The notes below the pieces were generated by a model, which searched no databases, was not told the DNA's origin, and was given only the letters and a program-made list of their open reading frames with translations. A stretch of 37,182 bases of DNA, taken from a candidate division WOR-3 bacterium (GTDB lineage Bacteria; SDB-A). A program made the translations under genes and the position numbers. This document shows positions 5,059 to 37,182 of this stretch, in pieces; the stretch's first letter is position 1, and each line of letters starts with the position of its first letter. The DNA lies in assembly GCA_016934535.1 (NCBI GenBank), contig JAFGSQ010000006.1, positions 66,617 through 103,798 of the forward strand. The letters run 5' to 3'.

Positions 5059-5128
5059 AAATTTCCTTTCCCGGTTCGTTTATGTTCTTTATCAGAATTA
5101 AAATTAATGTAAAACGATTGATTATTCT

Positions 5129-8369: not shown

Positions 8370-8437
8370 GTCTATCCTTACTTTTTCAGGGCAAGGATAA
8401 ACAAGACCGCAAAAACGGTTATGTTTGGGTATTCTTG

Positions 8438-8562
8438 CCCTTCCAAAAGCCTGCGAGGTTAGCTGACGGGCTCGGGTTTGGAAGTACCCTATCCTGTTTC
8501 AGGAATACGCCCCTAAAATTGGGTCCCCCGTATTCATGGCCGTTTTCATGAATTTCGGCGTC
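8438..8562 (-). ncRNA. c-di-AMP riboswitch (ydaO/yuaA)
   Basis: Minus strand CGCCGAA..ACGGGGGACCCA..GGGGCGTAT..AGGG..CCCGAGCCCGTCAGCTAACCTCGCAGGC matches the ydaO consensus; CTTCCAAA/TTTGGAAG pseudoknot; lies upstream of K+ uptake genes. Confidence 0.93.
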
Positions 8563-8586
8563 TGTAACGGCAATTTTTTGGGTAGC

Positions 8587-19105: not shown

Positions 19106-19121
19106 GACGAATCCTCAAAAA

Positions 19122-20365: not shown

Positions 20366-20627
20366 TTCCTTTAATCCTTTTTACATTTTATAAGAAGGGT
20401 TCATCCATTCCTGTTGTCTTGATGATATTAATAAATATTTGCATCAACAATTATCATATTCGTTTTGCAAAGCCGGTAAGTTTATCTGATTATTTGCCGG
20501 TTGGAAATAACAAAATCGGGAACATAAAACCGGGTAATTGTAAAATGATTTTTTATGAGTTCAATCATTTGCTTTGGATCCGATCTGATTTTCCAATTAC
20601 CCAGGAGAATACCAAACAAATATGGAC

Positions 20628-20890
20628 TCATGCTTCAATCCATCGGATGGGCAGGCCGTCAGCTTTTTTTGGCTCGTTCCAGCATTCCAGGTACAATGTC
20701 CGGACCAGTAATGTCAATTCCATACTGGGCCAGAGGGATTGTTATTCTGCCGGTGCCGCATCCAAGTTCGAGCGCCGCTCCGCCAAGCTTTTTGGCGATA
20801 GCAAGGTAAAACGGCCCGTCAGGTTCAAAACTGTTGTTCTCACAGTCATACAAGCCTGGATCTTCATACTCTTTCAGATTATTACCGCCG
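20628..20890 (-). pseudogene. Class I SAM methyltransferase fragment
   Basis: LELGCGTGR motif I; no proper ATG/SD; frameshift in A7 run (20664-20670) continues as ADGLPIRWIEA then stops; C-terminal half missing. Confidence 0.75.
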
Positions 20891-20991
20891 GTAATAATAT
20901 TCCGAACTCCCTGTGGTTACCCGCTGTGATAATTTCTCTTCTCTTTTGCACTCAGAATAACATCACATGATACACAAACATTAAATCAATT

Positions 20992-21384
20992 CTATAATTT
21001 TTCTTCTTCCGGTTCTTTGCCAAAGCAATAAAACTTTGACACACCTTCTTTAAAATACAGGACTTCGAACAATCCATCGTTACTTTTGTACGTGCCTTTT
21101 AAAATGGGATTATTTTCCAGCATTACCTTCCTCGCGTCTTCCGAGTCATCTTTCGCAATTTTTCCGCTCACCCGAATCCATGCCTTGTCATTCATAGCAG
21201 ATATTTCAATATTCGAATTATTTATCATTTGTTTATAGCAGTCTTTCTTGTTATTTGTGCAGATATAAAGACGGTCCTTATGTCTGCATAAAGCTCCGAA
21301 AGGTCTTACTCGGGGTTTATCCCCGTCGACAGTCGCGACATAAAAAACACCGGCGCCTTTAAGGAATTTTAACGTACGTTCCAT
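20992..21384 (-). CDS. Pyridoxamine 5'-phosphate oxidase family protein
   Basis: FYVATVDGDKPRVRPFG, KQM..N..IEI, WIRV.G; AGGAG SD. Confidence 0.83.
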   Translation of the reverse strand: MERTLKFLKGAGVFYVATVDGDKPRVRPFGALCRHKDRLYICTNNKKDCYKQMINNSNIEISAMNDKAWIRVSGKIAKDDSEDARKVMLENNPILKGTYKSNDGLFEVLYFKEGVSKFYCFGKEPEEEKL

Positions 21385-21468
21385 GTTGTACTCCTATTGT
21401 TTTCTTTTCAAATCAATACTCATTTTTAATAACCTTTTATTCAAATCCATTGTCAGCAACCCTTATAA

Positions 21469-22473
21469 CTATATTTTCCTCATTTCGACAAGGCATAGAT
21501 CCTTTTCTCCGTCTTTAAATTCCCTAAGATCTGAAACTGTCAACCCGGTTTTTCCGGCAAGAATTGACAGAGCATCTATCCCGGAAAAAAGATCTGCAGC
21601 TTCCGCAAACGCCTTGTATTCATCGAGAGAAATGATATGGTTCAACCACGGTTCTCTGTTCAAAAGCGCGAAGTAGGATCCATCTTTACTCAATACACGT
21701 TTGACCTCTCTTAATAGAGAGCTGATTCCGGTGATCTCCTGAAGTGCCATCACCGAACTGACAACGTCCATTGATTCGTCCGGAAAAGGCATTCCCCGCA
21801 CGTCCCCGCCTATTGCCTCACAATTTGAAGAGCGACCTATCATTCTGAACTTCTCCTGGATGATCCAGAGACATTTCAGGTCTCTCTCTACGGCGAATAT
21901 GCGCGTACCTGCGGAGAGATTATGAGCCAATGACGTCACGGAACTGCCGCTTCCTGAAGCAAAATCAAGCAGAGTTCTGGGTTTTAGGGATACAATGGAC
22001 CTAATGAATTCTTGTACCGGTTCTGCCGGATATTTGAGGACTTCTAAAAATTTCTTTTTTCTGTTCCGGGCAGACAGCCAACGACCTCTTTGGATATACC
22101 TGATCCTGCCTTCCTGCTTTTTCAGGTCCGGAAGTATATCCCGTGATGGGACAGCAGTTTTTCCCTCAGGTTTTTTAATTAATTTTATTGCGTTTTCAAT
22201 CCCCAGCCCTTTGAGACGATAAAGTGAGAAGGGACCATCGGGTTTACGTATCTCTCCCGGAGACAGCACTTCGTCAATCGGAGCAATCCAATCGTGAACT
22301 TTATCATCGGACAAAAGTATTGGCCTGCCGTGGAATATGGGAAATTTTTCAGAGCATTTTTTACAGCAAAGACTCCCTGAAATCAATTCATTTTTCCGGA
22401 CCCGTATTCGCTTTTCGTCCAGCTTTCCTTTACAGCGCGTACAACATAGAAGATTTAGGGTAAGTCTATTCAC
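21469..22473 (-). CDS. Class I SAM methyltransferase with N-terminal Trm112-like zinc domain
   Basis: CTRC...CKKC..FPI..G.P; LDFASGSG; GDVRGMPFPDESMD; EVKRVL. Confidence 0.8.
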   Translation of the reverse strand: MNRLTLNLLCCTRCKGKLDEKRIRVRKNELISGSLCCKKCSEKFPIFHGRPILLSDDKVHDWIAPIDEVLSPGEIRKPDGPFSLYRLKGLGIENAIKLIKKPEGKTAVPSRDILPDLKKQEGRIRYIQRGRWLSARNRKKKFLEVLKYPAEPVQEFIRSIVSLKPRTLLDFASGSGSSVTSLAHNLSAGTRIFAVERDLKCLWIIQEKFRMIGRSSNCEAIGGDVRGMPFPDESMDVVSSVMALQEITGISSLLREVKRVLSKDGSYFALLNREPWLNHIISLDEYKAFAEAADLFSGIDALSILAGKTGLTVSDLREFKDGEKDLCLVEMRKI

Positions 22474-22589
22474 TTTACTTCAATTGGTAAATCAATGGAT
22501 TCAATTCATGGTCAGTGTAAAAAGTGTCAAAATCTTTGATCAAAAAAAGTTGACTTAACTCACTGCCTGGACAACTGATTTTCATATAG

Positions 22590-23087
22590 TCATTTTCCCA
22601 TTTTCTTTACCAGTGATATTTCATTCGGTTTAAAACCAAGCTTTTCGTACAATTGCTTGGCGGGATTTGACACTAATACGTTAAGATCGACCTCTTCCAC
22701 GTTCATCTGTTGACCCCATTCCAACATCTTCCCAATCAGTTGCTCCGCAACTCCTTTTCGACGTGCATTAGGTTCAACATATACAGCGCTCAGATGCAAA
22801 CGCTTTTTTTCAACAAATATGCTGTCCAAAGGTTCGATGTCCGCTGAAACCATACCGATTACATCGTCTTTTTGCGACTCGTGATAAGCGATGAGAAATA
22901 TATGTTCTATACTGTAAATATTTGACCTGACATTTTTTTCCATTGCTATCCATACTGAATTAGATTTATCAACTCTATGGCCGCTGTAATTTTCCATCTC
23001 AAGAACCATATTCCTGATAAGATCAGTGATAACCGCAACGTCTTCTATTGTACCCGTTCGTATTTCAATCTGATTTTCTTTCATCAC
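22590..23087 (-). CDS. GNAT N-acetyltransferase
   Basis: VYVEPNARRKGVA, NPAKQLYEKLGF. Confidence 0.88.
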   Translation of the reverse strand: MMKENQIEIRTGTIEDVAVITDLIRNMVLEMENYSGHRVDKSNSVWIAMEKNVRSNIYSIEHIFLIAYHESQKDDVIGMVSADIEPLDSIFVEKKRLHLSAVYVEPNARRKGVAEQLIGKMLEWGQQMNVEEVDLNVLVSNPAKQLYEKLGFKPNEISLVKKMGK

Positions 23088-23297
23088 TTGATCTCAATAA
23101 ATTAAATTTAACCGGTTCATGTCATTTCTTCCTATTTAAATTTTCTTAACCACAATAAAAAACTCGGTTGCACGGCTTTATGACGAAATTTCGGATTCCA
23201 TGATTCGGTTCAAACATTTTCAATCCAACTGATCAATGATTTTTCTTTTTCACATCATCAGAGTGTATGCAAAATACGACACAATAACGACCATTAA

Positions 23298-23537
23298 CAT
23301 TAACAAGTAGTTAATTAAAAAGCAGTGGTTTTCCTTCATTAATTATTGGTTAAGAGTTAATCTTGAAAAAATTTCCCTGTCCACCCTCATCCTTCACCGG
23401 CGAGAAAGAACTTTTTTGTTGTCAATAAATTGTTGATTGAAAAAATATTTCGAAATGTTTGGGCACAGAGATGATTTCAGGCTTTTCCCCTTCTATGAGG
23501 TTTTTAGTATTTTATATCTGAAAAATATTAATGTCAA
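23298..23537 (-). repeat. Promoter-leader module, degenerate copy C
   Basis: TTGACA-N17-TAAAAT (23509-23537); AAACCTCATAGAAGGGGAAA leader like copy B; AATTAAC-TACTT-GTTAATG inverted site at 23298-23316. Confidence 0.5.
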
Positions 23538-23554
23538 ATAACCCAAGAATGAAA

Positions 23555-24808
23555 TCAATAGAGCCTGATTTCCTTGGGCCAAGGGGTTTCCATGGATGCA
23601 CGCCATGTCTTATCGATGTATTGATGTGTATACGATTGCTCGACAATATGAAAATAGTAACTTCCTGACATCGTCAATTCCCACCCATTACTTGTTCGCT
23701 TAAACAATTTTAATTTCTCCCCCAATTTCAAGTAGAAAGAAAAATCATTTTTCAATCTTGTCTCAAATAATTTAAAATAAGAATCTTCATTTAACACGCC
23801 ATTATAACAGTTCCAGAACAACCAATACGCTCTTCTTGTCCTCGGCGTAAACTCCATTTTCAACACGGTCGGAATCCTGCCCTTATTCAGCGAATCAATA
23901 TACGAATCAACAGAAAAGGTGTTCATTTTAAAAGCATCATTTCCTAGAGAAGCGGCGCTTGGCCCAAACCCCAAAAAACAATCACGGGTCACGGAAGAGT
24001 ATCTCGGAGAGTCCTTTTTCCCGAACGTCCAGACAGACGTTCTTATAAAATTTCTGGCCCAGGCAATCTCCAACAAACCATCGAGCAAATCCTTTTTCTG
24101 GCTGTTTCCCAAGGGTTTGTTCCGATTATTAGCATAACTGAAATCAATAAACGGATATGCTGATATTTGTGTTGCGCCAAGATCTACTGCGCGGGAAAAA
24201 TCTTCTTGAATATTTTGTCTAGTCTGACCCGGGATTCCGAATATTAGGTCTATATCAACGGCTTTGAACTTCTGAGAACATAGTTTTTTTAACTGTTTGG
24301 CACCGTCTGTATATTCTCTACCCAGATTGTTCAGCAGTTGTTCGTCAAACGACTGAATCCCGACGCTTACCATATCAATGTTCGCGCCCAAAAGTTTTTT
24401 TGACGTATCTTTTTCAATATCTTGTGGATGTAATTCTATTCCTGCCAATCCCTTAATTACATATCTGTCATCTAATTCTCTGCGAATATTTTCAAGATAA
24501 TCAACTGCCAGGGCCGGGCTTCCACCTCCAAAATAGAGAGTTGTAAATTTGTTTTCAGAATTCCCGATAATTCTACCGGCAATATCAATTTCAACAGAAA
24601 GCGCTTTTAAGTATGCACTAAACTTGTCTTTTTCAAAGGTTTCCTTGTAATAGGGGCAAAAATCGCACAATGCTTTGCAAAATGGTACATGAACATATAA
24701 TCCGACATCGCGATCGTTGAAATCAGGTAAAAAACCCGTGGCTTTTTTAAACAGGTAAAGTTTTAACTGTTGTCCTATGAATACTCTCAATAAATGAGTC
24801 AGCATCAA
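23555..24808 (-). CDS. HemN-like (coproporphyrinogen III oxidase family) radical SAM protein
   Basis: LYVHVPFCKALCDFCPY, YFGGGSP, SVGIQSF, DLIFGIPGQT. Confidence 0.87.
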   Translation of the reverse strand: MMLTHLLRVFIGQQLKLYLFKKATGFLPDFNDRDVGLYVHVPFCKALCDFCPYYKETFEKDKFSAYLKALSVEIDIAGRIIGNSENKFTTLYFGGGSPALAVDYLENIRRELDDRYVIKGLAGIELHPQDIEKDTSKKLLGANIDMVSVGIQSFDEQLLNNLGREYTDGAKQLKKLCSQKFKAVDIDLIFGIPGQTRQNIQEDFSRAVDLGATQISAYPFIDFSYANNRNKPLGNSQKKDLLDGLLEIAWARNFIRTSVWTFGKKDSPRYSSVTRDCFLGFGPSAASLGNDAFKMNTFSVDSYIDSLNKGRIPTVLKMEFTPRTRRAYWLFWNCYNGVLNEDSYFKLFETRLKNDFSFYLKLGEKLKLFKRTSNGWELTMSGSYYFHIVEQSYTHQYIDKTWRASMETPWPKEIRLY

Positions 24809-24962
24809 AACCGTCTTTTTTATTTTTCCCAGATTTTCAATATTATCTGTGGATTTTTATTTTTCCCAATACCGGGTCTCAACAGTTGGATAACAACCGC
24901 AAATATTATATCATAAATGCCAATTAGGATTAAGCGACCGAAGTTGGAGAAACGGGCAAAGG

Positions 24963-25901
24963 TTATTGAAACAGTTGAGTGTATATGGATTTTTTGTATT
25001 TTTTTAATACTCGTAAAGCCCTCAGCGTATTCCATGTACTGCTCTTTCCGGTCTCTTCCATGTCAAAATGAATCAGTCCGGGATGTTTTTGCTGAACGGG
25101 CCAAGTATTATTTTTTAGTTTTTTAGACATTATTATTTCTAACGCGTCTTCCATTCTGTCGTCAAATTTTTGACCGACGCTTTGAAAATAGTCCAGACAC
25201 CAAAGAATATCGTATCTCCATCTCGTCGGATATGAAAGCATTGTCATTTTTCTGTCTATTACTTTTCCGGTTTTATCAGACTTGTATAATTTATGCATAA
25301 GAATAAACTCGTGCGACTGTATTATTGATTTTTTTATTTCTTTTATTCTATACATATAATTATTGTCGATATACATCTTTAATCCCTCTAAGATATTTAT
25401 TGTCGTGTGAAGAGAGCTGTGGTTTGTGTCAAACTCCCAGCGGCAATTCCAACCGCTGTCTGGAAACTGTTTTTCAAGAATGAAATCAATTATTTCCGAT
25501 AGTCTGCTGTCATTCAATTCAACATAACAGCAAATAAACAACAGCATGCCGCAAATACAAAGGTCCAAATATCGTTCTTTTTTCTTTTCCGGTATTCTCC
25601 ACAATTTTTCCAACAACAGTTTACTGCTTTGGAATATCCTTTTGTCCTGAGGGGGAGCCATGTTGATCAAATCCAGCAAAGTATAAGTCGTCGAAATCCA
25701 CTTCGGAGAATAAATACCGTTTCCCCATGTACAGCTATTATCATCACGCAGATCCATAAACGCTTTCCCCCACCCTTTTTTTAATATTTTGGATCTGTCC
25801 TGTGTGAGTTCAATCTCTTCGAAATCGAGCAGGTCTCTTTTAACTTGATAAATTACTGAGGGATCGCCTTTCATAAACCAATCAAGTAAATCATTATTCA
25901 T
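24963..25901 (-). CDS. Conserved hypothetical, prenyltransferase/squalene-cyclase-like repeat protein
   Basis: GIYSPKWISTTYTL, Q.PDSGWNC, YPTRWRYDIL, S.WNTLRALRVL; start moved to ATG 25901 behind GAGGAG. Confidence 0.72.
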   Translation of the reverse strand: MNNDLLDWFMKGDPSVIYQVKRDLLDFEEIELTQDRSKILKKGWGKAFMDLRDDNSCTWGNGIYSPKWISTTYTLLDLINMAPPQDKRIFQSSKLLLEKLWRIPEKKKERYLDLCICGMLLFICCYVELNDSRLSEIIDFILEKQFPDSGWNCRWEFDTNHSSLHTTINILEGLKMYIDNNYMYRIKEIKKSIIQSHEFILMHKLYKSDKTGKVIDRKMTMLSYPTRWRYDILWCLDYFQSVGQKFDDRMEDALEIIMSKKLKNNTWPVQQKHPGLIHFDMEETGKSSTWNTLRALRVLKKYKKSIYTQLFQ

Positions 25902-25968
25902 TTTATTTACTCCTCGTTTCGTCAAATATTACTATGCTTTTCATTTTCATCTTTGTCATGAATTAAAT

Positions 25969-26676
25969 TTACCTCTCCATAGCTTTTATTTTTAAATCTT
26001 TCGGTATTTTTTCAATGGCGTACCGTAAAGCGGTTCGTGGCATTTGACTCTTGTTTTTTATTACATAATCAAACACCTCTTTTTGACGGGCTTCACTAGC
26101 AGCTTTGAGCATCCAGCCGTAACCTTTTTGAACCAAATCATCTTTATCCAAAAGCAGAATATCAGCAATTTCTAAAATTTCCTTTAGAAATTTTCCCTTT
26201 CTTGCCGGTATAATCAATGACACGGACGACGCTCGGCGCATCCATCTGTTTTTTGATTTGGCCATGTCTTTTAATCTGCATAAATACTTGGGATACATTA
26301 CAATGAATTCTCCAACCGTATGATTGCAAAGAGTATCGCATGAAGCCCAGTTATCGACATATTTGTCTACCCATTTCTCGAAAATTTGAAAGTCTTCAGG
26401 TTCGAATTTCTTATGGATATAATAAGACCAATGGCAGGCAATGAACGATTCTTCAATAAATCCGGATTGCCATAACCTTTCGCAAATGTCAAATATTTCA
26501 GATTTTGTCTTTGATTCGATAAATTTGAAATATTCCCTGCTTATTTTATTTACAATTGGAACCTTTACCCCGTAAAACTTTATCTTTTCCTTAAAAAATT
26601 TCTGACTGGTTAACTCAGTTTTTTCATCAATGTTTTTTCTCAGTTCTGTTCTTATTTTCTCAATGATTTTTTCCAT
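25969..26676 (-). CDS. DNA alkylation repair protein (AlkD-like HEAT repeat)
   Basis: YGVKVP, VDNWASCD, W.RR, D..VQKGYGWMLK, RTALRYAIEK. Confidence 0.87.
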   Translation of the reverse strand: MEKIIEKIRTELRKNIDEKTELTSQKFFKEKIKFYGVKVPIVNKISREYFKFIESKTKSEIFDICERLWQSGFIEESFIACHWSYYIHKKFEPEDFQIFEKWVDKYVDNWASCDTLCNHTVGEFIVMYPKYLCRLKDMAKSKNRWMRRASSVSLIIPARKGKFLKEILEIADILLLDKDDLVQKGYGWMLKAASEARQKEVFDYVIKNKSQMPRTALRYAIEKIPKDLKIKAMER

Positions 26677-26768
26677 AATTAACTGAATTCCTGTCTTTTA
26701 AATTTCTTATCTATATTTGTACAATGTATGACAATTTTCCTAAATTAATATACTTTGCTTGTTTATAT

Positions 26769-27173
26769 TTATTCTTTTACCCAATTCTCAATTCTTATTC
26801 CATCTACTCTTTCAAACTCTTTTATGTTATTTGTGACAAGGATGAGCTTTTTCGTTTTTGCCTGAGCTGCCAACAATAAATCCATTTGACCTATTATTTT
26901 ACCTTTTTTTTCCAAATCTGTTTTAATAATCCCAAAATTAACTGCATCTTTGTCGTCAAATGCTAAAATATTGAAGATTGATAAAAACTCAATCAAAGCT
27001 ATTTTATTCTTTTCAGGGAATTGGCTTTTTGAAACTCCAAATTCTAATTCAGCAATTGTTATTGCTGATATATAAATATCTTTTTTAGATTTTATTTTTA
27101 ATGTCTTTAAAACATCTGCAGGCTTTTTCTTTATGATATAGATACAAATATTCGTATCCAGCAGATACATCAA
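26769..27173 (-). CDS. vapC: VapC PIN-domain toxin
   Basis: YLLDTNICIY, AELEFG, DLLLAAQA, LVTNN.KEF.RV.G...ENW. Confidence 0.93.
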   Translation of the reverse strand: MMYLLDTNICIYIIKKKPADVLKTLKIKSKKDIYISAITIAELEFGVSKSQFPEKNKIALIEFLSIFNILAFDDKDAVNFGIIKTDLEKKGKIIGQMDLLLAAQAKTKKLILVTNNIKEFERVDGIRIENWVKE

Positions 27174-27400
27174 AACTCTTCTCGTATTTGATTTTTCCCT
27201 TGATTACGGCCTTCTTTCATAAAATCATCAGTGAAACCATTCAAACCTTGAAGGAATACTTCCCATAATTTATCGTGCGGGAGAAGAATAACGGCGTCAC
27301 CAATTTTCTGGATTAGAACATCTTTCCCTGAAAACTGGAATTCCTTGGGTAAACGAACGGCCTGACTTCTGCCATTTATAAAAAGTTTTGCGTTTTTCAT
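27170..27400 (-). CDS. vapB: VapB (AbrB/SpoVT-type) antitoxin
   Basis: AKLFINGRSQAVRLPKEFQF; GGAGGT SD before ATG 27400; overlaps vapC start. Confidence 0.92.
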   Translation of the reverse strand: MKNAKLFINGRSQAVRLPKEFQFSGKDVLIQKIGDAVILLPHDKLWEVFLQGLNGFTDDFMKEGRNQGKNQIREEF

Positions 27401-27418
27401 TTTCTCACCTCCGGCAAC

Positions 27419-27447
27419 AGTATATATCATGGTATAGATTCTGTCAA
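27419..27447 (-). promoter_or_regulatory. vapBC promoter with overlapping palindrome (putative operator)
   Basis: TTGACA-N17-TATACT; imperfect palindrome TATATCATGGTATA at 27423-27436. Confidence 0.65.
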
Positions 27448-27549
27448 TATTTTAACTAAACCTTCAAACATCGATTATGGAAAAGTCATGAATAAAAATC
27501 ACATATCCTTTGTTGCCGGTAGGGTCTAAAATTTAAAAATATTTTTACT

Positions 27550-30500
27550 CTAATTCAATTTTATGGTTTTAATCTCAAATGGTTTGAATTTCAAGCTGAT
27601 TGATCCGCAATTTTCAAAGTCGAGTTGCTCAGTTATATTTTCCAGGAGATCGGTTTCAGAACAATTTTTATAATTAGCTTTGGGCTGAAAGATAAACTCG
27701 CCGTTGCGACCGCAGGTCTCGTAAAATCTCAGGACAATTCCTTTCCCTTTCTCAGCCGGTTTAATTGCCTCTATTTTAATATTTCCGCTGTCACCAATAA
27801 TTGTCATAGGGTTTTGAAAGTCAGGAATTATTTTGGCTGAAAACCTGAGAAGTGGAGTATTGAATTCATGAGCCTTTTTCCAGGTGTCGCTCACCTCTAT
27901 CCGGTTTTTGTGAACATAGTAAGCAAAAGCAAATCCATGGATTCCCTGATCGGCAATATTGCCGTCAGGCATGACGGGAGAGCGCAGAAGATTTAGGTCA
28001 ATAGTCGAACCTTTAATATAATGACCGTATTTGCAGTCGTTGAGCACGGCAAAACCGTAGCTGTGGTTGCTCAATCCTGCATAACGGTGAGCGCAGATTT
28101 CAAAACGTGCGGTATCCCAGCTTGTGTTATTATTATTGGGACGGCTGATTGAACCAAACTGAATTTCCGATATGGAATCATTGCAGAGAACTGACGTTTC
28201 GGCTGACAACCTCAGCATTTTTCTCTTTTCCTGCCAATGAACAGTATTGTCAAACCTCAAAAGAGAGGATCCCTCTTCAAGAGTTATATCCTGTTCTATG
28301 AGACTCTCCGCAATTTTAAGCTTTTGCAGTATTTTAATTCTGAATCGGTTGATTTCAATAACATTTCGTTCCAGGAGTTTTGGTTTTATCGGAGGCTTTT
28401 CCCGGTAATAATGGTTGATGTCCCATGCTTCCCATTTGAGCGGTTCATCGTCATACAACAAAAACTGGTTTGCCGGTCCGCTCAGAAATTCGTAATCATA
28501 TTCTTTATGAAAAAAGGATCCAATGCTTCCATCGTCTTCCAGTCTGATTCTGACCAAGCTGTTTTCCAGTACATTGTCTTTAAAAGATAGTTCGTTAAAT
28601 GTATCTTTTTTGAGTTCCGTGGTTCCCGTTGTCACGGCGATCATTGCCATTGGAGGCAAATCGAGGCAAAAGATCAGCTTGTCATCCTGCCTTTCGGCAA
28701 AAAACCTTTCTCCTGTCTCTGTAAAAACCTCGTTTTGTTCTTTATCAACCGGAAGTTCAACTGTCTCCCTGCGTTCCCAGTTGAGGGTATTCATAAAAAC
28801 ATGATACTTGCCGGAAGTTTCCTCATCATAAAATTCACTCAATATTTGGGTCTGAATTTCATCCAATAGAGATAAATTTTTCTCACTGAGAGCATGAGCG
28901 TCTTCATAGACCTGTTTTATTGAGGAACCGGGCAGAATATCGTGAAACTGATTGAGCAGAGTGTTTTTCCAGATTTTCTCCAGTTCTTTTACAAAAATTC
29001 CTCCGTTTATCGCCGAAAGAAATTCTATATCTCTGAGTCTTTGCTCAAGTCTGCGGTTATATTTTTTCATCAGGGCCTGTGTAGTATAAGTTCCCCTGTG
29101 CAGTTCAAGATAAAGCTCTCCCACCCAAACCGGCAGGATGTTTTTATCAATTTCGCTGATTTTTTTGAAAAAATCCTGTGCAAAAGCAAACTTGAACCGG
29201 GGTACACCGTCGGTGTTCTGCTGGCGCAGGCCGTATTCAATATGTTCTCTTCCCGGTCCGCCGCCGCCGTCTCCGTTTCCGTAGAGATTCAAAAAAGCGT
29301 CGGCAATGTCGCTCTGAGAAAATTTTTCTTCACCTTTAATAAGTTCTTTGGGAGTGTTGGCAACATTGTAGTCGTCAGTCGGCAAAAAGTGCGCAATGAC
29401 AGAACTTCCGTCAATGCCCTGCCAGTTGAAAAGATGATGCGGAAAGCGGTTGGTTTCATTCCAGGATATCTTCATTGTCATAAAATAGTCAACTCCGCAC
29501 TTTTTTAGAATCTGGGGCAAGGCGGCGCTGTAACCGAAAACGTCGGGCAGCCAAAGATTGTTGATTTCCTTTCCGAACTCATCCCTGAAAAACCTTTTTC
29601 CGTATAGACATTGTCTGACCAGAGATTCCGAACCGGAAAGATTCATATCCGGCTCCACCCACATGGCTCCCTGTAATTCCCAGCAGCCTTCCTCGACGGC
29701 TCTGCGGATTTTCTCAAAAAGCAGGGGCTGATCCTGCTTGACCCATTCGTAGAGCTGAGGCTGACTGGCTCCGAATTTGTACAGGGGATATTCTTCCATC
29801 ATCTGCAAAGCCGTTGCAAATGTTCTAATCCCTTTCCGTCTGGTTTCTCTGACCGGCCAGAGCCATGCCATGTCAAGATGGGCATGACCTATGGAATAGA
29901 CTGTCAGAGCCGACCAGGATGCCGGCACAGCCAGAAGAGATTTGGTAATATTCAGGGAATTTTCTATAAAACAGTTTTCATCCGGCAGATTTAAAATTTT
30001 GTTGAGCTCCGAGAAAATTCTTTTTCTGCGGACCGAACCGTTTTTCTGGTTTTCAGCGATCTCGTAGAGCACCCGCATATCCATCCATAATTCAAAAATT
30101 TTCTTGTCAAAACGGACAAGATCAGACCCATTCAAAAAATAATCCTTTTTGCCTGCTTCTCCGAAAAGCGAATTGGCCGAAGTCTCAAGAATAAGTTCAA
30201 ATTTATCCCCTGCCGGTTTTATTAAGGGGTAATAGTATTTTCCTGCCCTGAGATCCCAATGTATTTTGTTTGTAAGTCCGGCGACCGGAATCTTGTTTTC
30301 AAAGACGCACGATTCTCCGTCAGTGTCGAGATAGACACCGAAATCGGAGTTCTGCCATTCTTTTGGTATTGTTCCGTAAAACTTAAACCACCCGCAATCC
30401 CAGACCTCCCCCCATTTTTCTCCGGTTTGAATCTGCTGAAAATCCATGGTCTGCATCTTTTCATAACTCACCGGGATATTTTTGGTATTAATGTAGAAAG

Positions 30501-30627
30501 CTTTTAAGGGAATGGCATCAAAATAGACTTTTTTGCCGAGTCTTTCTATAAACTGCTTTATTCTTTCGCCGTATATTTTCTCATTCTGCATAAATTTCTC
30601 TGCTGAATGATTCCACTGCCTGTTCAA
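27550..30627 (-). CDS. Alpha-mannosidase, glycoside hydrolase family 38 (true start may be ATG 30591)
   Basis: GHAHLDMAWLWP, WLPDVFGYS, GDGGGG, GELYLELHRGTYT, NQFHDILPGS. Confidence 0.93.
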   Translation of the reverse strand: MNRQWNHSAEKFMQNEKIYGERIKQFIERLGKKVYFDAIPLKAFYINTKNIPVSYEKMQTMDFQQIQTGEKWGEVWDCGWFKFYGTIPKEWQNSDFGVYLDTDGESCVFENKIPVAGLTNKIHWDLRAGKYYYPLIKPAGDKFELILETSANSLFGEAGKKDYFLNGSDLVRFDKKIFELWMDMRVLYEIAENQKNGSVRRKRIFSELNKILNLPDENCFIENSLNITKSLLAVPASWSALTVYSIGHAHLDMAWLWPVRETRRKGIRTFATALQMMEEYPLYKFGASQPQLYEWVKQDQPLLFEKIRRAVEEGCWELQGAMWVEPDMNLSGSESLVRQCLYGKRFFRDEFGKEINNLWLPDVFGYSAALPQILKKCGVDYFMTMKISWNETNRFPHHLFNWQGIDGSSVIAHFLPTDDYNVANTPKELIKGEEKFSQSDIADAFLNLYGNGDGGGGPGREHIEYGLRQQNTDGVPRFKFAFAQDFFKKISEIDKNILPVWVGELYLELHRGTYTTQALMKKYNRRLEQRLRDIEFLSAINGGIFVKELEKIWKNTLLNQFHDILPGSSIKQVYEDAHALSEKNLSLLDEIQTQILSEFYDEETSGKYHVFMNTLNWERRETVELPVDKEQNEVFTETGERFFAERQDDKLIFCLDLPPMAMIAVTTGTTELKKDTFNELSFKDNVLENSLVRIRLEDDGSIGSFFHKEYDYEFLSGPANQFLLYDDEPLKWEAWDINHYYREKPPIKPKLLERNVIEINRFRIKILQKLKIAESLIEQDITLEEGSSLLRFDNTVHWQEKRKMLRLSAETSVLCNDSISEIQFGSISRPNNNNTSWDTARFEICAHRYAGLSNHSYGFAVLNDCKYGHYIKGSTIDLNLLRSPVMPDGNIADQGIHGFAFAYYVHKNRIEVSDTWKKAHEFNTPLLRFSAKIIPDFQNPMTIIGDSGNIKIEAIKPAEKGKGIVLRFYETCGRNGEFIFQPKANYKNCSETDLLENITEQLDFENCGSISLKFKPFEIKTIKLN

Positions 30628-30642
30628 CTGAATCTATTTGCC

Positions 30643-31311
30643 TCACCACTCTTCTCTTACTTTTCCAAATAAACTGATTAGGTCTTCTTCCAGATTCCGC
30701 TTCTCAGCAGCAATAGACTTCAATGAACAAAGAGCACTTCTCGCTATACAAGCCTTATAGGACCAACTGTATGGACTTTGAGCAGGGTCATCATCATTGA
30801 TTTCCAAGTCTCCTGCAACAACGGCCATTGAAAGCAGTTGCGTGTTTTCAATGATCCATAACCACATTTGATCATCAGGAGGGAAAAGGTCTTCTTCCCA
30901 AACCTCCACCTGTCGGCTGTGATCGATTCCCTTCTTCACAACTTGTGTATTTTCTTGCGTGGGTTCTTTCAGCCAGGCTTCAACATTCTTGAGTTGTTTC
31001 TCAATAGTCTCCCCATCGAGACATGGGTCGGTTTCTAGAAAGGCAAAACCGAGGTCTTTGACTTGAACAAGATGGTTTTCAAAAACATAATCCCACGCAT
31101 AGCGTGCGAAGAAGGTTGCGAACAGGATAGCTGTACTTCGGTCGAGTTCGGCAAGTTGCTGCATGAACGTATCGAAAGATTTCTCCAGGGGTAGGGTCGC
31201 AAAAAGCCAATTTTTGGTTGGCGGATTTGTGTTTTCATTGCAAAGTAGAAAGAATTTGTTAATATCAACGATTTGTGCGATTTGTCTCTTGATTTCTTCC
31301 AGTTTCATCAT
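30643..31311 (-). CDS. Hypothetical protein
   Basis: 222-aa ORF with AGGAG SD; no motif recognised. Confidence 0.65.
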   Translation of the reverse strand: MMKLEEIKRQIAQIVDINKFFLLCNENTNPPTKNWLFATLPLEKSFDTFMQQLAELDRSTAILFATFFARYAWDYVFENHLVQVKDLGFAFLETDPCLDGETIEKQLKNVEAWLKEPTQENTQVVKKGIDHSRQVEVWEEDLFPPDDQMWLWIIENTQLLSMAVVAGDLEINDDDPAQSPYSWSYKACIARSALCSLKSIAAEKRNLEEDLISLFGKVREEW

Positions 31312-31344
31312 TTTTAATATCTCCTGATTGTGTTTTTGTCACAG

Positions 31345-31685
31345 ACCCGGCATAAGATTAGGATTACTAATGACAAAGCATGCGTTGCTTTCAATCATTG
31401 TCTATCCTAAGTTGAATGCTAATTGAAGATTTATTTTGGTGAATGACCCGCAGTAAAGAAATAATTGGTCCTTACCCCTTCAGTGGTTTTGTATCTCAAT
31501 ATTAAAATTGCATATGGGAGCTGTCAAATACTGAATCATTTCTTTTCAGTCTATATTTTCTATTTCATTTTTTGGATTTATTCTAATGTAATGGCTTAAA
31601 TTCGTTAAGTCCATATTTTGAGCCATTCTACATGAAAACCGAGTAAAAAAAATGATTCAAAAACTTCAGAGACAATATTTTTCTC
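31345..31685 (-). repeat. Promoter-leader module, copy A (longest)
   Basis: 31475-31685 aligns with 34426-34640; 31351-31480 aligns with 36871-37004 (shared CTAATCTTATG end); TTGACA-N17-TAATAT at 31499-31527. Confidence 0.75.
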
Positions 31686-31748
31686 AACAATAATATTTCG
31701 GCTGGTTACGAAAGAAGTTGATATAGAGCTGTAACTTATGCCACAGTA

Positions 31749-32612
31749 TTACACTTTTTTTGAATCCAGTATTTTCTTCAGTTTATCTATGCCGGGTTTT
31801 GTTTTATAAAGAGGTACGGATTCTTTTCGTTGCGGAAAAAGGTTTTCTTCGAAAACAGTATTTTCTGTAGTGTTATAAATAACTCCGAGAGAAAATTTAT
31901 TGTTTTCAAGTGCATTGCGCATTGCCTTGTCTCTGTCTGTTGAATCCCAGGATTCATCCAGATAGTATGTATTGTCTCGATACCAGCGAAAATTATTTTC
32001 TTTATTGAATGAAACGCAGGGTTGCAGTATGTCAACCAAAGAATATCCTTTATGGATTATCGCTTTTTTTATAATCTCTCTGGTTTTATCAACATCCCCG
32101 GAAAAAGCCCTGGCGACAAATGAAGCGCCCATTGCTACAGCAACAGCGGCAGGATTAAACGGTTCAAGATATACACCGGCAGTCTGAACGGGAGTTTTGA
32201 AGCCACGTTTACTTGTCGGAGAAGCCTGCCCTTTTGTGAGGCCGTAAACCATATTGTTATGAACAAGGTTGGTTATATCCGGATTTCTGCGGATTGTTGC
32301 CAGAAAATGATTTCCACCCTCGCCGTAAGTGCATCCGTCGCCGCTTTCAGCAATAACAGTCAGTTTGGGATCAGTCGCCTTTATGGCTGTCGCCGCCGGC
32401 AGTGATCTGCCGTGAAGACCGTTGAAGAAACTAACATTAATATATTGAGGCATTTTCGCGGCCTGACCTATGCCAGAAACCATAACAAGCTGATCTCTTT
32501 GAATCTTCAGGTCATCAAGAGCCCCTTTTAGCGCTTTGAGTATATCAAAGTTGCCGCATCCCGGGCACCACGCGATATCAATTTCCCTATTAAAATCAAA
32601 AATGGATGACAT
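31749..32612 (-). CDS. 2-oxoacid:ferredoxin oxidoreductase beta subunit
   Basis: WCPGCG, LHGR, SGDG TPP motif, [18 protein letters not shown]. Confidence 0.93.
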
Positions 32613-32616
32613 GAAT

Positions 32617-34365
32617 TTACCTCTCTGCCGGGTTTATGAATTCTTGTGTCAGTTCTTCCACGCTGAAAGGCATTCCATTATATTTAGTAATCTTCCTGTC
32701 GAATTCAAAGCTTGTAAGCATCCGTATAAGCAGGGCGAATTGTGACGAGAAATTATTTTCGACGATTATGGTTTTGCTCGCTTTTTTTAAATATATTTCT
32801 GTCTGCCTGTGTAAAGGGAAAAGCTGGGTGAAATGCAGGAGAGCCGTATCCTTTGCACCCGAAGATATGAGTGCTTCAAGTACCGTTTCAAGTGTCGAAC
32901 CCCACGAAACAATGAGTGTTGTGTAGTTTTCTGGGCCATAAAGATCGGGAGCTATAATATCTGGTTCCATAGCTTTAATTTTCCCCATTCTTTTGTTTAC
33001 CTGAGCAGTTCTGACAGAAAAACTTTCTGTTATGTATCCTCCTTCATCGTGTTCATCGCTGTCAACACAGACTATCCCTGTGCCGTATCCGGGAATTCCT
33101 CTGGGTGAAATTCCGGTGTCTGAAATTGTGTATCGCTGATATTTATCATCAGTTTCAACAATAATGTTTTCGTTAGAAAATTCATCCATTTTTATTTCAG
33201 GGATGGTGGTGTATGAGTCAAGATAGTACTGATCTGTCAGGATAATGACCGGCACCTGATATTTATCGGCAATGTGAAAGGATCTCGCGGCAAGAAATAA
33301 ACCCTGACGGAAGTTTCCCGGAGCGTATATTACCCGTGGAAATTCGCCATGACCGGCGAAAAGTGTGAAGAGGAGATCGCTTTGTTCGGTTCTCGTCGGT
33401 AATCCTGTTGCGGGTCCGGGTCTTTGTCCGATGTGAATTACCACAGGGGATTCGGTGGCGCCCGCGAGACTTAAGCCCTCTGCCATCAGCGCGAAGCCTC
33501 CTCCCGATGTGGTGACCATTGCGCGGCCTCCTGCATACCAGGACGCGATTGCCATATTGATCGCGGAAATTTCATCTTCAGCCTGTTCAACGGCTATATT
33601 CAATTCTGTTGAATGTTTCGCGAAATTTACAAGAACATCAGTCGAGGGCGACATCGGATAAGAAGAAATGAAGTTGCATCCTCCGGCAATGGACCCGTAG
33701 GTTATTGTCTCTGCACCATTCAACAGTATTTCCTGTGAAAGCGCCGGAGCTGGATCCGGAATCCGGATTACCTGCCGGTTGTTGAATAATTCCTGCCCTT
33801 TTTCAAATCCCGCGGAAGCTGCATTAATGTTACTATCAATTTTATCGGAGGCGGCAGATGAGAAATAGGATTGCACCTGATCTATAAGCATATAACGATC
33901 AATTTTAAAAAGGGCGGCGAATAGTCCCATTATTAAAAGGTTCAGGTATTGTTTCCCTCCGGACTCTTTCGCCATTTCTGTAAAAGGAATATCTATAAAA
34001 GTATAATTTTCATTTTTGTAAATATCATTAATAAAGACTGCTTCACCAATGATAACTGTATCGGAACCGATTCTCTCTTTGAACCGGTCCATAGCCCCTT
34101 CACCGAATGGAATAAATATATCTATTCTGTCGGTAAATGCGGTTTTTCTTTGTGAAGAAACTCGAATTAACGTTGAGTTGTTGCCTCCTCTAATCCGCGA
34201 CATAAATTCACTGTATGAAAAAATATATCTTCCTGAAATTTTAAACATCCTCAATAAAAGACGTTCGAGGGTTTGTATACCCTGGCCGGCCTGACCAGAG
34301 AGTACGATTGACAGGTCTAAACTGTTTTCTGTCATTGAAGCTTTTGTATCCCTTGAGTTCATCAT
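32617..34365 (-). CDS. 2-oxoacid:ferredoxin oxidoreductase alpha (gamma-alpha fused) subunit
   Basis: [41 protein letters not shown]. Confidence 0.93.
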
Positions 34366-34425
34366 TCTTTTACTGGAAAATTATGTTTACGAGACAGGAT
34401 GTTCCTAAGGCAGGTTCTTGCATTT

Positions 34426-34640
34426 CCCCTTCAGTGAGGTTTGTTATTTTATATTAAAACCGTGAAGAGTTGTTGTCAAATTCTGAATTATTCTTTTTCA
34501 GTCTATTTTTTCTGTTTCATTATTTGGATTTAATCTAATGCAATGACATTAAATTCTTCGAGTCAAGCATTTGCACTATTCATTCTAAAAATTGAACGAT
34601 GAAAAATATTTTAAACAACTTCAGAGATAGTTATTTTCTC
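34426..34640 (-). repeat. Promoter-leader module, copy B (leader truncated by the oxidoreductase gene)
   Basis: Imperfect direct repeat of 31475-31685 (CCCCTTCAGTG..TGTCAAAT.CTGAAT..TTTTCAGTCTAT..TTTGGATTTA.TCTAATG..AACTTCAGAGA); TTGACA-N17-TAATAT at 34451-34479. Confidence 0.8.
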
Positions 34641-34696
34641 TCAAGCTGAGGTCGCTATCTCTGGATGATTCCGGTTTGAAACGGTTGTTGCGCAAT

Positions 34697-35191
34697 TTAA
34701 CCAATATATTTCTTTCCTATAATAGATTCAATATCCAATCTCAGTATTGTCACTTTATTATACGATTCATCATTCTTTATGTTTCTTTCAAATATCGGCT
34801 TTGGATCTTTTTCAAGATGGTTCAATAAAATCTGGAGTCCATGTTTCTTTTCTTCCAGGTCTGAAACAATAAATATATTGCCGCGTACTATAAGTGAAGA
34901 ATAATCATGATCACATTGAGTTTCCAAATAGCCTTTATCCTCTATTATTGTTCCGCATACTTTGCTGTTCATTTTTATATAATCAAGTTTATCGCCTTTA
35001 TTCGCGCAGTGAAAATAGAAGCAATTCCTGTTTTTATCAAAACCATAACTCAAAGTTACAATATAGGGATTATCATTTACTGACAATGCAAGTGAAATAT
35101 GATTTCCAATTTTTATTATTTTGTTTATTTCACTTTGATCCAGAATTTCATTACGTAAACGCTTTGGATGATACTGCATTGCATTCTCCAT
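34697..35191 (-). CDS. Pyridoxamine 5'-phosphate oxidase family, Nim-like flavin-binding protein
   Basis: PYIVTLSYG, FYFHCANKG.K, N.KVC, Y.S.I..G, GK C-terminus. Confidence 0.82.
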   Translation of the reverse strand: MENAMQYHPKRLRNEILDQSEINKIIKIGNHISLALSVNDNPYIVTLSYGFDKNRNCFYFHCANKGDKLDYIKMNSKVCGTIIEDKGYLETQCDHDYSSLIVRGNIFIVSDLEEKKHGLQILLNHLEKDPKPIFERNIKNDESYNKVTILRLDIESIIGKKYIG

Positions 35192-35283
35192 TCAAGTAAT
35201 TCAATTATTCTTTGAGCACGCGACAGCGCGTCCGCACAACGCCTGCACCGGCAAAATCTAAAAGAGGAGGATCGTGATTCCTC

Positions 35284-36873
35284 TCATTCAAAGTGCTTGT
35301 ACTCCGCCCAGGCGCGGTCGATCGGGACATGCCGGTCGCGTACGATAAATATCTTCAGATTATTCTCCTCTGGCATGCAATGCATGCACGTGTGCAGACC
35401 GGCCTGCATGACGTCGCCGTAGGACTCGAAGTAATCTTCCCGGTTTCCACCCAGCCGGATAAATGTCGTCACCGGCATTGGGCCGACACCCCAAAACCAG
35501 TAAGAGTTGTGGTTGCATATCACACGCGGCAGAAGATATTTGTGCGCGTACAACTCCAGCGCACCTGCCTCGCCGTAATTCGTGACGAAGACAACCGTCG
35601 TGGCCCGTTCGGTATCTGGAATAGAGACATAAGCCTTCGATACATTCTGCGCAAGCTCCTCCCACCCGTGCATGTCGGCGAAGAACTGCGGAAGATCCCC
35701 GAGTTCCTGGTTTTCCGGCGTGTTCGGCGCTACACCAAGCGCTTTTGAGTAACTCAGGTACAAATTCACGGGCAGGATCGGAATAGCAAACGGCGCGAGA
35801 ACCGCTCCCGATAGGACGAGGATCGTTGGAACGCCCCAGCGCCATGGGAATTTAGCCGTGCCGAGGCAGACACCGCCACAAGCAAATATCATCGGGTAGG
35901 CTGCAACGATGTACTCCGATTTTGTATGAGAGTTGGCGATAAGTACTCCAAACACAGTGAGGAACATTATACCGATGAGCCGTCGCGAACGTTCATCTTT
36001 ATGAGTAAAACACCACACGAGACCCGGCAGTGAAACCAAGTACGTAAACGGATTCATTCCCCAGAACTGATCGACGACAAAGCGCCACCGGGTGAGTGAT
36101 GAATACTTCTGCTCCAAAGCGTTCCGCATGAACTCGATGTGTGGCCAGCCGTTCAGGGCATTCCAGATCACAAAGGGTGAGAAAATCGCGAGAGCAACAG
36201 CTGCCGCCGCGTATGGCCCAGGGGTCTTGAGCTGAAAGCGCAATCGCCTGTCGAATAAAATTACAGCGGAAACGCCTGCTCCAAGCCATAGAACGCTTGT
36301 CTTATTGAGAAGTCCCAGGCCAAGAACAAATCCAAGCCAGATCCATGCCTTGAACCTGGCGCTTTCAGCTGCTCCGATAAGCGCATGGACCGCCAAAAGC
36401 CAGAACATGACGTCGAGGCTGTTCATCGAGAAGTAAGTGTGGAGACTCAGCATCTGCGGAGCGGCCAATAACGCCAGCGAAGCCAGTACGATCGAGGCGC
36501 GGCCTCCTCCCATTCGCCGGGCGAGGATGCCCGTTAGAGCAACGGACACGCCGAAGAGAATAGCAGGTACGAGGCGAATGGCAAACACTGAATCACCGAA
36601 GAGACTGCACGCTACTGCTAAGACGAAAATCGATAGAGGCGGTTGATCAACATATCCCGCATCGAGATGTTTACTGCAAGCGATATAATAGAGCTCATCC
36701 CGAAAATACCCGTAACCGCCTATGGTGTTTGCGATGATGAGCACGGTGAGCGCCAACACCGCCATTACGAAAATCGTAACCCAGTTCGATGAACGCGCCT
36801 TTCCTGCAGTTTCTGTTTTTGTCAGGTCTATCTGGGCAGATTCATCGCCCTCACCACACATGATGCTCAACAT
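35284..36873 (-). CDS. GT-C membrane glycosyltransferase (GT39/ArnT-like); start uncertain
   Basis: YFRDELYY, GYVDQPPL, GLGLLNK, many TMs, NYGEAGA; visibly GC-richer than flanks. Confidence 0.85.
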   Translation of the reverse strand: MLSIMCGEGDESAQIDLTKTETAGKARSSNWVTIFVMAVLALTVLIIANTIGGYGYFRDELYYIACSKHLDAGYVDQPPLSIFVLAVACSLFGDSVFAIRLVPAILFGVSVALTGILARRMGGGRASIVLASLALLAAPQMLSLHTYFSMNSLDVMFWLLAVHALIGAAESARFKAWIWLGFVLGLGLLNKTSVLWLGAGVSAVILFDRRLRFQLKTPGPYAAAAVALAIFSPFVIWNALNGWPHIEFMRNALEQKYSSLTRWRFVVDQFWGMNPFTYLVSLPGLVWCFTHKDERSRRLIGIMFLTVFGVLIANSHTKSEYIVAAYPMIFACGGVCLGTAKFPWRWGVPTILVLSGAVLAPFAIPILPVNLYLSYSKALGVAPNTPENQELGDLPQFFADMHGWEELAQNVSKAYVSIPDTERATTVVFVTNYGEAGALELYAHKYLLPRVICNHNSYWFWGVGPMPVTTFIRLGGNREDYFESYGDVMQAGLHTCMHCMPEENNLKIFIVRDRHVPIDRAWAEYKHFE

Positions 36874-37051
36874 AAGATTAGTCGTAACAATTCAAAAAGA
36901 ATGGTTTACGCTCCATAATTACCTGGTTTCTGTTGGCTGTTAATTGAAAAAAAAATATTAGTTAAATAGCGCTTAGAAAAGAAATGATTTGGTATTTCTC
37001 CTCCAATAAACAAGTATGAATAATAATAGAACTGTAGTTATTTCAAGTCAA
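36865..37051 (-). repeat. Promoter-leader module, copy D, ending in attI-like site
   Basis: TTGACT-N17-TATTAT (37023-37051); leader colinear with copy A; GACTAAT-CTTAT-GTTGAGC at 36865-36883. Confidence 0.6.
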
Positions 37052-37182
37052 ACAAGGATTTTTAATTTAGGATAGTTGTTTATCTTTTGTTCTTAGTAAA
37101 AAATATATTTTAAACCACTAGTGTCCTATAAAAAATAAAAAGAAAAAGACTGGTTCCTAAAAAGAAAATATAATCAAAAAAA

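Follow-up and report, generated by a model that had tools for sequence, protein, structure and literature searches.

The last part of a contig from a candidate division WOR-3 bacterium (37,182 nucleotides, hereafter the window) contains four minus-strand intergenic regions, modules A, B, C and D, in which a strong sigma70 promoter and a purine-rich Shine-Dalgarno block stand ahead of unrelated accessory genes. The explanation that we favour, and consider reasonably probable, is that the modules descend from an integrase gene whose relic, consisting of promoter, ribosome-binding site and 3' remnant, has come to serve, through reuse and reshuffling, as a portable expression module ahead of accessory genes. 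The modules would then constitute a small paralogous family, each member with a strong sigma70 promoter, a Shine-Dalgarno block, sometimes a start codon, and the decayed 3' end of a recombinase gene. The recombinase itself would have been lost from the genus, its promoter and ribosome-binding site would now drive unrelated accessory genes, many of them species-specific, and the copies would have been spread and re-joined by recombination, with promoter and leader halves of different histories. What the data establish are the homology of the modules and its specificity, the recombinase descent of the better-preserved copies, the pattern of conservation, the variable and unrelated cargo, the mosaicism and the lack of an IntI integrase; the recombinase descent of the four window leaders, the activity of their promoters, translational coupling and the means by which the modules spread we infer.

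The window is the final 37 kb of a 104-kb contig (C61) in a 2.23-Mb genome of 76 contigs, here called G000, which is 100% complete by marker genes. It was compared with five relatives (G001 to G005), making six species genomes of the phylum in all. Positions 1-6245 are syntenic with three congeners at 73-87%, and from 6 to 37 kb the window is a variable zone throughout, beyond the parts adjoining the modules. Between 23755 and 36977 there is no DNA match in the three congeners except a D-like module, and no tRNA gene lies in the window. The DNA occurs in sediment and wastewater communities. None of the listed sequencing runs that contain the window is an RNA run; two RNA runs of the same study contain next to no words of the window and are uninformative on expression.

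Four homologous promoter modules

All four modules lie on the minus strand and have hexamers separated by 17 nucleotides. Module D (36871..37064) has TTGACT at 37051-37046, TATTAT at 37028-37023, followed by the purine block GGAGGAG (37004-36998) and a leader extending as far as CTAATCTTATG at 36881-36871. Module B (34366..34640) begins with an A-like upstream segment (34640-34480), followed by TTGACA at 34479-34474, TAATAT at 34456-34451, GAAGGGG at 34432-34426 and a vestigial open reading frame (ORF) of 17 codons. Module A (31351..31685) combines a B-like upstream segment (31685-31528), TTGACA at 31527-31522, TAATAT at 31504-31499 and GAAGGGG at 31481-31475 with a D-type leader up to CTAATCTTATG at 31361-31351. 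Module C (23380..23554) consists of TTGACA at 23537-23532, TAAAAT at 23514-23509, GAAGGGG at 23493-23487 and a strongly decayed leader. The promoters, which can be summarized as TTGAC(A/T)-17-TA(A/T)(A/T)AT, match the consensus at 10-11 of 12 positions and are four of the seven best among 59 sigma70-like sites in 22400-37182. The purine block starts 14-19 nucleotides past the -10 box. The start codon behind it has been lost in A, C and D and is present in B, where an ATG at 34423 opens the vestigial ORF (34423-34370), whose stop (34372-34370) lies 4 nucleotides before the ATG of an oxidoreductase gene (34365). This ORF probably couples translation into the oxidoreductase gene, whose own Shine-Dalgarno sequence is only weak.

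A and B are 73% identical over 218 nucleotides (31685-31472 against 34640-34423; blastn E 4e-32), a stretch that includes about 158 nucleotides upstream of the -35 box and reaches no further than the purine block. Between A and D the colinear part lies downstream, with 62% identity over 135 nucleotides (blastn E 5e-5), and their similarity ends at the shared CTAATCTTATG, 148 (A) and 152 (D) nucleotides after the -10 box. B and C share 81% over 42 nucleotides (E 0.005-0.008). With promoter and purine block removed, the local alignment of the A and D leaders still reaches z = 12.2 against 300 shuffles. Four of the 42 leader pairs that include a window copy exceed z = 3: A-D, A with copy G003_C1 (z 3.5), and B with copies C58 (z 4.9) and G001_C101 (z 5.6).

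A first-pass annotation of this DNA had described four mutually homologous regions with 17-bp-spaced promoters, about 160 bp shared by A and B upstream of the promoter, and colinearity of A and D for some 130 nucleotides with a stop about 150 nucleotides from the -10 box. All of this is borne out, the promoters in position and in sequence, and the similarity beats shuffled controls. Its further statement that the purine block starts no real gene holds for A, C and D, which have no ATG, and needs correcting for B, where the block precedes the ATG of the vestigial ORF.

The specificity of the resemblance is seen with an nhmmer profile built only from seven copies outside the window. This leave-out profile recovers B (E 1.6e-15), C (1.1e-10), D (2e-6, the match spanning 37062-36964) and A (1.1e-5), and across the whole of G000 these are its only non-training matches, the next reaching E 0.88. 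Because it recovers only A to D, their likeness is not generic promoter resemblance in AT-rich DNA.

Some features near the promoters are of more local occurrence. Just upstream of promoter A, a 15-nucleotide inverted repeat, 93% complementary (31532-31546 and 31645-31659), brackets 98 nucleotides, and the near-palindrome GAAT(C/G/A)ATTC is found there at 31540, again near 30610, and once more on the upstream side of B. An invertible promoter was considered and rejected, as TTCAGT..ACTGAA flank the promoter in A only and the match is just 5-6 nucleotides long. CTGAAG was likewise discarded as a flanking direct repeat: it is found upstream in A, B, G003_C37 and C58 and was not seen in other copies.

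Conserved expression signals and variable cargo

The genome of the window holds seven copies, namely A to D, one on contig C58 and two on contig C62 (C62a and C62b). A sequence-only covariance model of 11 copies gives matches at E<=0.01 in G000 (seven), G001 (two), G002 (two), G003 (three) and G004 (two), and none in G005. Since 35 unrelated genomes of other families reach E 2e-4 (best match 22.5 bits), weaker matches are counted as noise; the solid copies, better than this value, number seven in G000, two in G003, one each in G001, G002 and G004, and none in G005, and 11 of these 12 had trained the model. Four matches weaker than E 1e-4 (G001:C71, G004:C284, G002:C100 and G003:C5) are at noise level and were not counted on the model alone. 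By eye, G004:C284 is about 90% identical to G004:C93, and G001:C71 carries CTTACTGAAGGGGATATG ahead of katG. A scan of JGI metagenome contigs for the promoter followed by CAYWGAAGGGGAAATG gave 0 matches, a scan that may omit G000's own records.

Twelve columns are invariant in the alignment of the 11 copies: five in the -35 box (TTGAC), two in the -10 box (its outer T's), three in the purine block (G, A and G) and two A's that precede the ATG. Outside these columns the sequence, including the start codon, decays freely, and ORF lengths differ between copies. The longest conserved stretch lies between promoter and leader and reads (C)ACTGAAGG(G/A)GAAATG, also given as ACTGAAGGRGAAATG. No Rfam family matches the modules, either at its gathering score or at E<=5, and RNAalifold finds 0 base pairs in the alignment. 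The lack of RNA structure and of an Rfam match, together with the invariant expression signals, points to the promoter and the ribosome-binding site as what selection has kept. A hairpin CCUC..GGGG that would hide the Shine-Dalgarno block was also tried and rejected, its registers being inconsistent between copies and RNAalifold predicting no pairs.

The genes behind the modules are unrelated and their families differ from module to module. In the window all are on the minus strand. Behind D lies a PMT_2 (GT-C) membrane glycosyltransferase (35284..36873; PF13231 E 3.3e-25), with a GC content of about 49-50%, where the other bins of the window have about 32-47%, followed by a Nim-like Pyridox_ox_2 gene (34697..35191; PF12900 E 7.9e-15; NimABCDEF E 4.5e-15, below its cut-off). 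The cargo of B is a 2-oxoacid:acceptor oxidoreductase (31749..34365), with alpha subunit at 32617-34365 and beta subunit at 31749-32612 (TIGR03710, 587 bits against a cut-off of 483; NF008821, 454 bits against 438); the five relatives hold no orthologue, just paralogues of 28-34% identity. A heads 27550..31311, which comprises a gene for a 222-aa protein of no family (30643-31311), found in 0 of 5 relatives, and one for a 1025-aa mannosylglycerate hydrolase/mannosidase-like protein (27550-30627). Behind C, the library scan places a GNAT acetyltransferase (22590..23087), which is missing at the orthologous place in G002:C59 and in a strain about 95% identical to G000.

Elsewhere in G000, C58 is followed by the gene for a 184-aa protein, C62b by a methyltransferase gene and C62a by a Phd/RelE-type pair, named from ORF translations and not library-scanned. 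Cargo in the relatives includes an O-methyltransferase, a 333-aa protein and a membrane protein, as well as a DNA methyltransferase and KatG, the latter two named from reading the sequence and not scanned. The earlier view that the downstream genes are accessory and vary between relatives is thus upheld, with unrelated families and with tested cargo lacking orthologues. Toxin-antitoxin pairs and GNAT enzymes resemble the typical content of integron cassettes.

The leader, its probable recombinase origin and the mosaic copies

Comparison at the sequence level shows that the leader of the better-preserved copies was once part of a XerA-like tyrosine recombinase gene, of which it is the 3' end in decayed form. 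On G002:C83 an intact 60-codon ORF stands behind the purine block, and its product is 46% identical (E 4.5e-9) to the C-terminus of a full 282-aa integrase of G005, over a region that includes the ..HNSSKTT.IYTH.. stretch with the catalytic tyrosine; its matches to the IntI-like proteins of G004 and G005 are weaker (E about 1e-5). The G005 integrase is itself XerA-like (NF040815, 244 bits against a cut-off of 220). The C58 copy matches PF00589 positions 151-168 (E 0.009; tblastn E 1e-4), and the relic on G004:C93 has about 160 nucleotides that by eye are about 80% identical to the G005 gene, with the same sequence beyond the stop. When the relics are made into a DNA profile, it also detects a genuine Xer gene, at E 7e-10, and copy C62b, at E 0.002.

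The window leaders can be placed alongside these copies. That of B is a shortened leader of the C58/G001 type, and those of A and D resemble G003_C1 and G003_C37 at their start, the latter reading MSKHFFAALCLIENG against MLRHSFATHLLEQG in the integrase. In a by-eye alignment the shared CTAATCTTATG is read as a remnant of the C-terminal ..SNPLDD.. motif of the recombinase, so the abrupt stop of the A-D similarity would be the end of the dead gene, that is, the stop region of the relic. Because all copies share a single break point in the gene, one truncated form appears to have been propagated. Its origin may have been an internal deletion that left the integrase promoter, the ATG-CAA-GAA start and the last 55 or so codons; ATG-CAA-GAA opens B and C58 just as it opens the G005 integrase, and the start ATGCAAGAA is identical in all three. 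The opposite end of this family of dead genes may persist on contig C46 (G000:C46:45100-45340, L063 about 1100-1341) as an integrase N-terminal relic of about 30 codons, with one stop and its start lost, upstream of which TATTTGACTTGA matches the D-type -35 region. A GC-rich PAS-domain gene lies directly behind this relic. No matching recombinase was found in the genus of G000.

Just past the integrase stop, G005 (L022 about 1341-1497) and G004:C93 (L024) have a short ORF or site with MIKEKY(T/R)QLCL(F/Y)H.., CAATTG and an ATTCC..GGAAT symmetry. Traces of this ORF occur in copies C58 and G001_C101 (MIDPKYH, MTNLKYH), and it might represent the recombinase's own site.

The promoter and leader parts of the copies were also compared separately, with hexamers and purine block removed, over 55 pairs and 400 shuffles each. 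In 22 of the 55 pairs one part or the other reaches z >= 3, and the partners differ between parts. G002_C83 resembles G003_C37 in the promoter (z 13.9; leader z 1.3) and G001_C101 in the leader (z 21.6; promoter z 1.6). The promoter of D resembles those of G002_C83 (z 8.6) and G003_C37 (z 6.6), and its leader that of A (z 9.8). Module A is itself a mosaic, B-like in its upstream segment and promoter and D-like in its leader. Since the partners of the two halves differ, the halves have different histories, with exchange near the Shine-Dalgarno block. Visible breakpoints between copies cluster at the purine block, about 20 nucleotides past the -10 box, and not 150 nucleotides downstream, and they cannot be placed on a single dinucleotide. 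Because the block in the purine region is the longest conserved run, homology-guided exchange could have produced this clustering.

Variation between genomes is seen at several of these loci. At locus C, the orthologous promoter in G002:C59 stands directly ahead of a homologue of the 334-aa methyltransferase gene, and G000 is about 1 kb longer (leader and GNAT gene) between ..ATAGAAG and ..ATTGAAG. At the C62 locus, G000 has the order module-toxin/antitoxin-module, G003 has one diverged module and G002 has no recognizable module. As a rough measure, C62a and C62b are 80% identical in the promoter part and 64% over 70 nucleotides of leader; these values come from an alignment with free end gaps and an unreliable table, which the shuffle tests replace for reassortment.

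The strain about 95% identical to G000, represented by contigs from two wastewater runs of one study, has B with its cargo and the Nim-like gene colinear (31591-35384). A joint from 30600 to 31560 skips module A and the 222-aa gene, to be taken with caution as its shorter side is 29 letters, and another from 20494 to 23235 skips three genes behind C. Position 20494 lies inside a 626-nucleotide 'intergenic' region (20366-20991, minus strand) that by eye resembles a frameshifted class I methyltransferase gene (..LELGCGTGRITIPLA..). The leader of D diverges in this strain from 36829 onward. The strain also has 778 extra letters at 19120-19129, between the genes at 18521-19105 and 19122-19754.

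Other features of the window stand apart from the modules. The contig closes with the end of a multi-copy element (37116..37182, minus strand), which is not part of module D. The same 67-90 or so nucleotides also terminate contigs C38, C16 and C59 and are present in G001:C71, and divergence sets in after ..CACTAGTG; this end carries a GACTGGTTCC..GGAACCAGTC hairpin and terminates in ..ATAGGACACTAGTG, and the element itself is unassembled. Upstream of a 451-aa gene (7014-8369), at 8433-8570 on the minus strand, is a c-di-AMP riboswitch (RF00379, which it matches with 85.8 bits where the gathering score is 38). A VapB/VapC pair (26769-27447, minus strand; NF047862 and NF047863 above cut-off) has a promoter of its own at 27447-27419 that matches 11 of 12 positions, and the listed start of VapB is probably about 10 codons too early.

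Competing explanations and related systems

Several points weigh against the reuse of an integrase-gene relic, or limit how far it reaches into the window. The leader of C has no significant likeness to any other leader in the shuffle test, and the relic DNA profile detects none of the four window leaders (E>10). Because the profile finds none of these copies, the recombinase origin of A to D is transitive: chains of similarity and a by-eye alignment suggest that their leaders share it. The end of A, ..ATTAGTAATCCTAATCTTATG, is read as the gene end ..ISNPLDD.., again by eye, with ..ISNPNLM.. set against ..ISNPLDDVM... As to the internal deletion, the matches of the C46 relic are weak (tblastn E 0.10; PF02899 E 0.066). 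That A to D act as promoters is what consensus and conservation alone would suggest. The identities between modules (A-B 73%; B-C 81%, over 42 nucleotides only; A-D 62%) are below the 80% over 50 nucleotides of the mobile-promoter inventory described below. Finally, the clustering of breakpoints and the module-toxin/antitoxin-module order on C62 are explained by a site-specific mechanism no less well than by passive spread.

Such a mechanism, which we hold to be unlikely, would make the modules site-specific cassette joints at which a recombinase, perhaps the lost XerA-like enzyme or a resident Xer, crosses over within (C)ACTGAAGG(G/A)GAAATG. The circle would consist of leader, cargo and promoter, the resident promoter reading the incoming cargo and the incoming promoter the displaced gene. 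The reassorted promoter and leader halves and the end of the A-B homology at the purine block accord with it, the extra 1 kb or so of locus C sits exactly behind the promoter, and the C62 layout has the pattern of a Campbell-type insertion at a module. The rough values for C62a and C62b (80% in the promoter, 64% in the leader) look low for RecA-driven exchange, and relatives of the same family encode a XerA-like integrase and IntI. However, the genus lacks a matching recombinase, the breakpoints do not fall on one dinucleotide, the similarity of G002_C83 and G003_C37 continues about 25 nucleotides beyond the ATG, and neither of the two strain deletions (30600 to 31560 and 20494 to 23235) ends at the block. 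As the longest conserved stretch, the block would be favoured by homology-guided exchange too.

Xer-dependent modules of the pdif type are flanked by 28-nucleotide dif-like sites. A naive pattern scan turned up no dif-like site here: none of its 413 weak matches, palindromic at no more than 6 of 11 arm positions and not compared in full with module coordinates, stood out. An attC-less cassette system derived from a XerA-like integrase, with a relic at every joint, a promoter carried by each mobile unit and promoter swapping on insertion, is likewise doubtful.

Quite improbable, in our judgement, is that the modules are scars of independent integrations in which the integrase gene was split on insertion, as with the 'suicidal' SSV-type integrases of archaea. 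In Badel et al. (2020; PMC7253208) the suicidal-integrase principle is described, as are integrase pseudogene fragments with a constant break beside captured genes and fast-evolving pseudogenes that recombine into hybrids. In the present case too the fragments are C-terminal, start at the same point of the gene and lie beside accessory genes, and one N-terminal relic is found on C46 next to a GC-rich foreign gene. Unlike those systems, ours is in a bacterium, with no N-terminal halves at the far ends of blocks, no tRNA target and a promoter shared upstream of the break. All copies have a homologous promoter and Shine-Dalgarno block upstream of the break, which independent insertions would not give; tblastn with the full G005 integrase found no N-terminal piece on contig C61, the sole candidate being that on C46 (E 0.10), and the window has no tRNA gene.

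That the modules are a shared regulatory leader (riboswitch-like RNA, small RNA or regulon operator), kept by function and not by descent, is highly improbable. In its favour, the block AAACCTCACTGAAGGGGAAATG is conserved just past the start site, and A and B have the near-palindrome GAAT(S/A)ATTC immediately ahead of their -35 boxes. Yet there is neither an Rfam match nor, with RNAalifold, a single predicted pair, and the likeness reaches into spacers and recombinase-derived sequence, which a shared operator would not explain.

The first-pass annotation had interpreted the modules as a Pc-attI unit duplicated along an array, with several attI sites served by an integrase in trans. What stands is that a promoter-leader unit was copied, giving several expression points, but this unit is not an integron Pc-attI. 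Similarly, the proposed link to a recombinase is real in so far as the leader appears to derive from a tyrosine recombinase gene, but that gene is XerA-like, not IntI, and only its 3' end is present. Classical attI sites flank the 5' end of intI. An IntI acting in trans finds no support in the 100%-complete G000, where the best TIGR02249 score is 87 bits against a cut-off of 265 (positive control on G004:C250, 394 bits); its full tyrosine recombinases are two Xer-like genes only, PF00589 finding an 18-residue relic in addition. Homology does not always end at G|TTRRRY, a check that the annotation had proposed, and extends past the purine block by about 60 nucleotides in B, about 125-130 in A and D and about 330 in C58 and G001. 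Both outcomes, no IntI and variable end points, are among those that the annotation itself had named as refuting its reading. Nor is a 7-5-7 attI shared: GACTAAT-CTTAT-GTTGAGC is found in D only, A has GCCGGGT, and B and C are without the motif.

A reading of all intergenic regions, in which no dedicated attC covariance model was used, revealed no attC-like repeats behind genes, and of the 16 pairs of inverted repeats in 17000-37182 not one is placed after a cargo gene as an attC would be. Instead of a single common promoter there is a separate one for each gene block. Integrons do occur in the family, as G004:C250 encodes an IntI of 426 aa (L027 1501-2781) and G005:C253 an IntI-like protein of 414 aa (L026 61-1305; similar by eye, not scanned), each with an N-terminal extension of about 110 residues; the module relic is nonetheless XerA-like. 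Against the D motif and these relatives stand the lack of IntI in G000, variable end points, missing motifs and attC-like repeats, separate promoters and a XerA-like 3' relic, and it is barely credible that this is a genuine integron platform on which one IntI serves several attI sites. The Pc-attI of integrons (Cury et al., 2016; PMC4889954) is comparable in that a promoter heads co-oriented acquired genes next to a tyrosine recombinase gene, here a relic. It differs in that the modules come without IntI, without attC that we could find and with a promoter per block, integron cassettes rarely holding promoters, and in that what remains is a XerA-like gene's 3' end, the IntI-specific insert being absent.

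The reuse of an integrase-gene relic has its closest counterpart in putative mobile promoters, inventoried at a threshold of no less than 80% identity across 50 or more nucleotides located -150 to -50 relative to the start codon (Nijveen, Matus-Garcia and van Passel, 2012; PMC3575422). Their mechanism of spread is unknown, and it has been suggested that they rewire genes or switch them on; among such promoters, mention is made of insertion sequences, tRNAs and riboswitches but not of integrase relics (PMC3575422). The modules have in common with them homologous promoter-bearing sequences upstream of non-homologous genes, within a genome and in its relatives. They differ in identities of 62-81%, below the threshold, and in a homology that takes in the -10 box and the Shine-Dalgarno block as well as a leader traceable to a tyrosine recombinase gene. 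Correia elements, ERIC and REPIN, as named in PMC3575422, are likewise short repeats that supply promoters to their neighbours; the modules, unlike these, have no family-wide terminal inverted repeats or target duplications (a 15-nucleotide inverted repeat occurs at A only) and are low in copy number. A literature search found no report of integrase relics reused as promoters, most subscription journals being outside its reach. The modules are best read as a variant of the putative mobile promoter phenomenon with a traceable origin.

Little is known about how newly acquired genes become expressed. In this 2.2-Mb genome a single module, whose apparent source is a dead integrase gene, stands ahead of at least seven accessory blocks unrelated to one another, and in sister species it precedes other cargo. 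If an attC-less cassette system were true, an integron-like platform for capturing and expressing genes would have been invented a second time, independently, in a little-sampled phylum. The modules provide a concrete and testable case of promoter reuse, in which chance recombination can be asked about against a dedicated site, and they suggest that integron-like layouts can arise without integron machinery.

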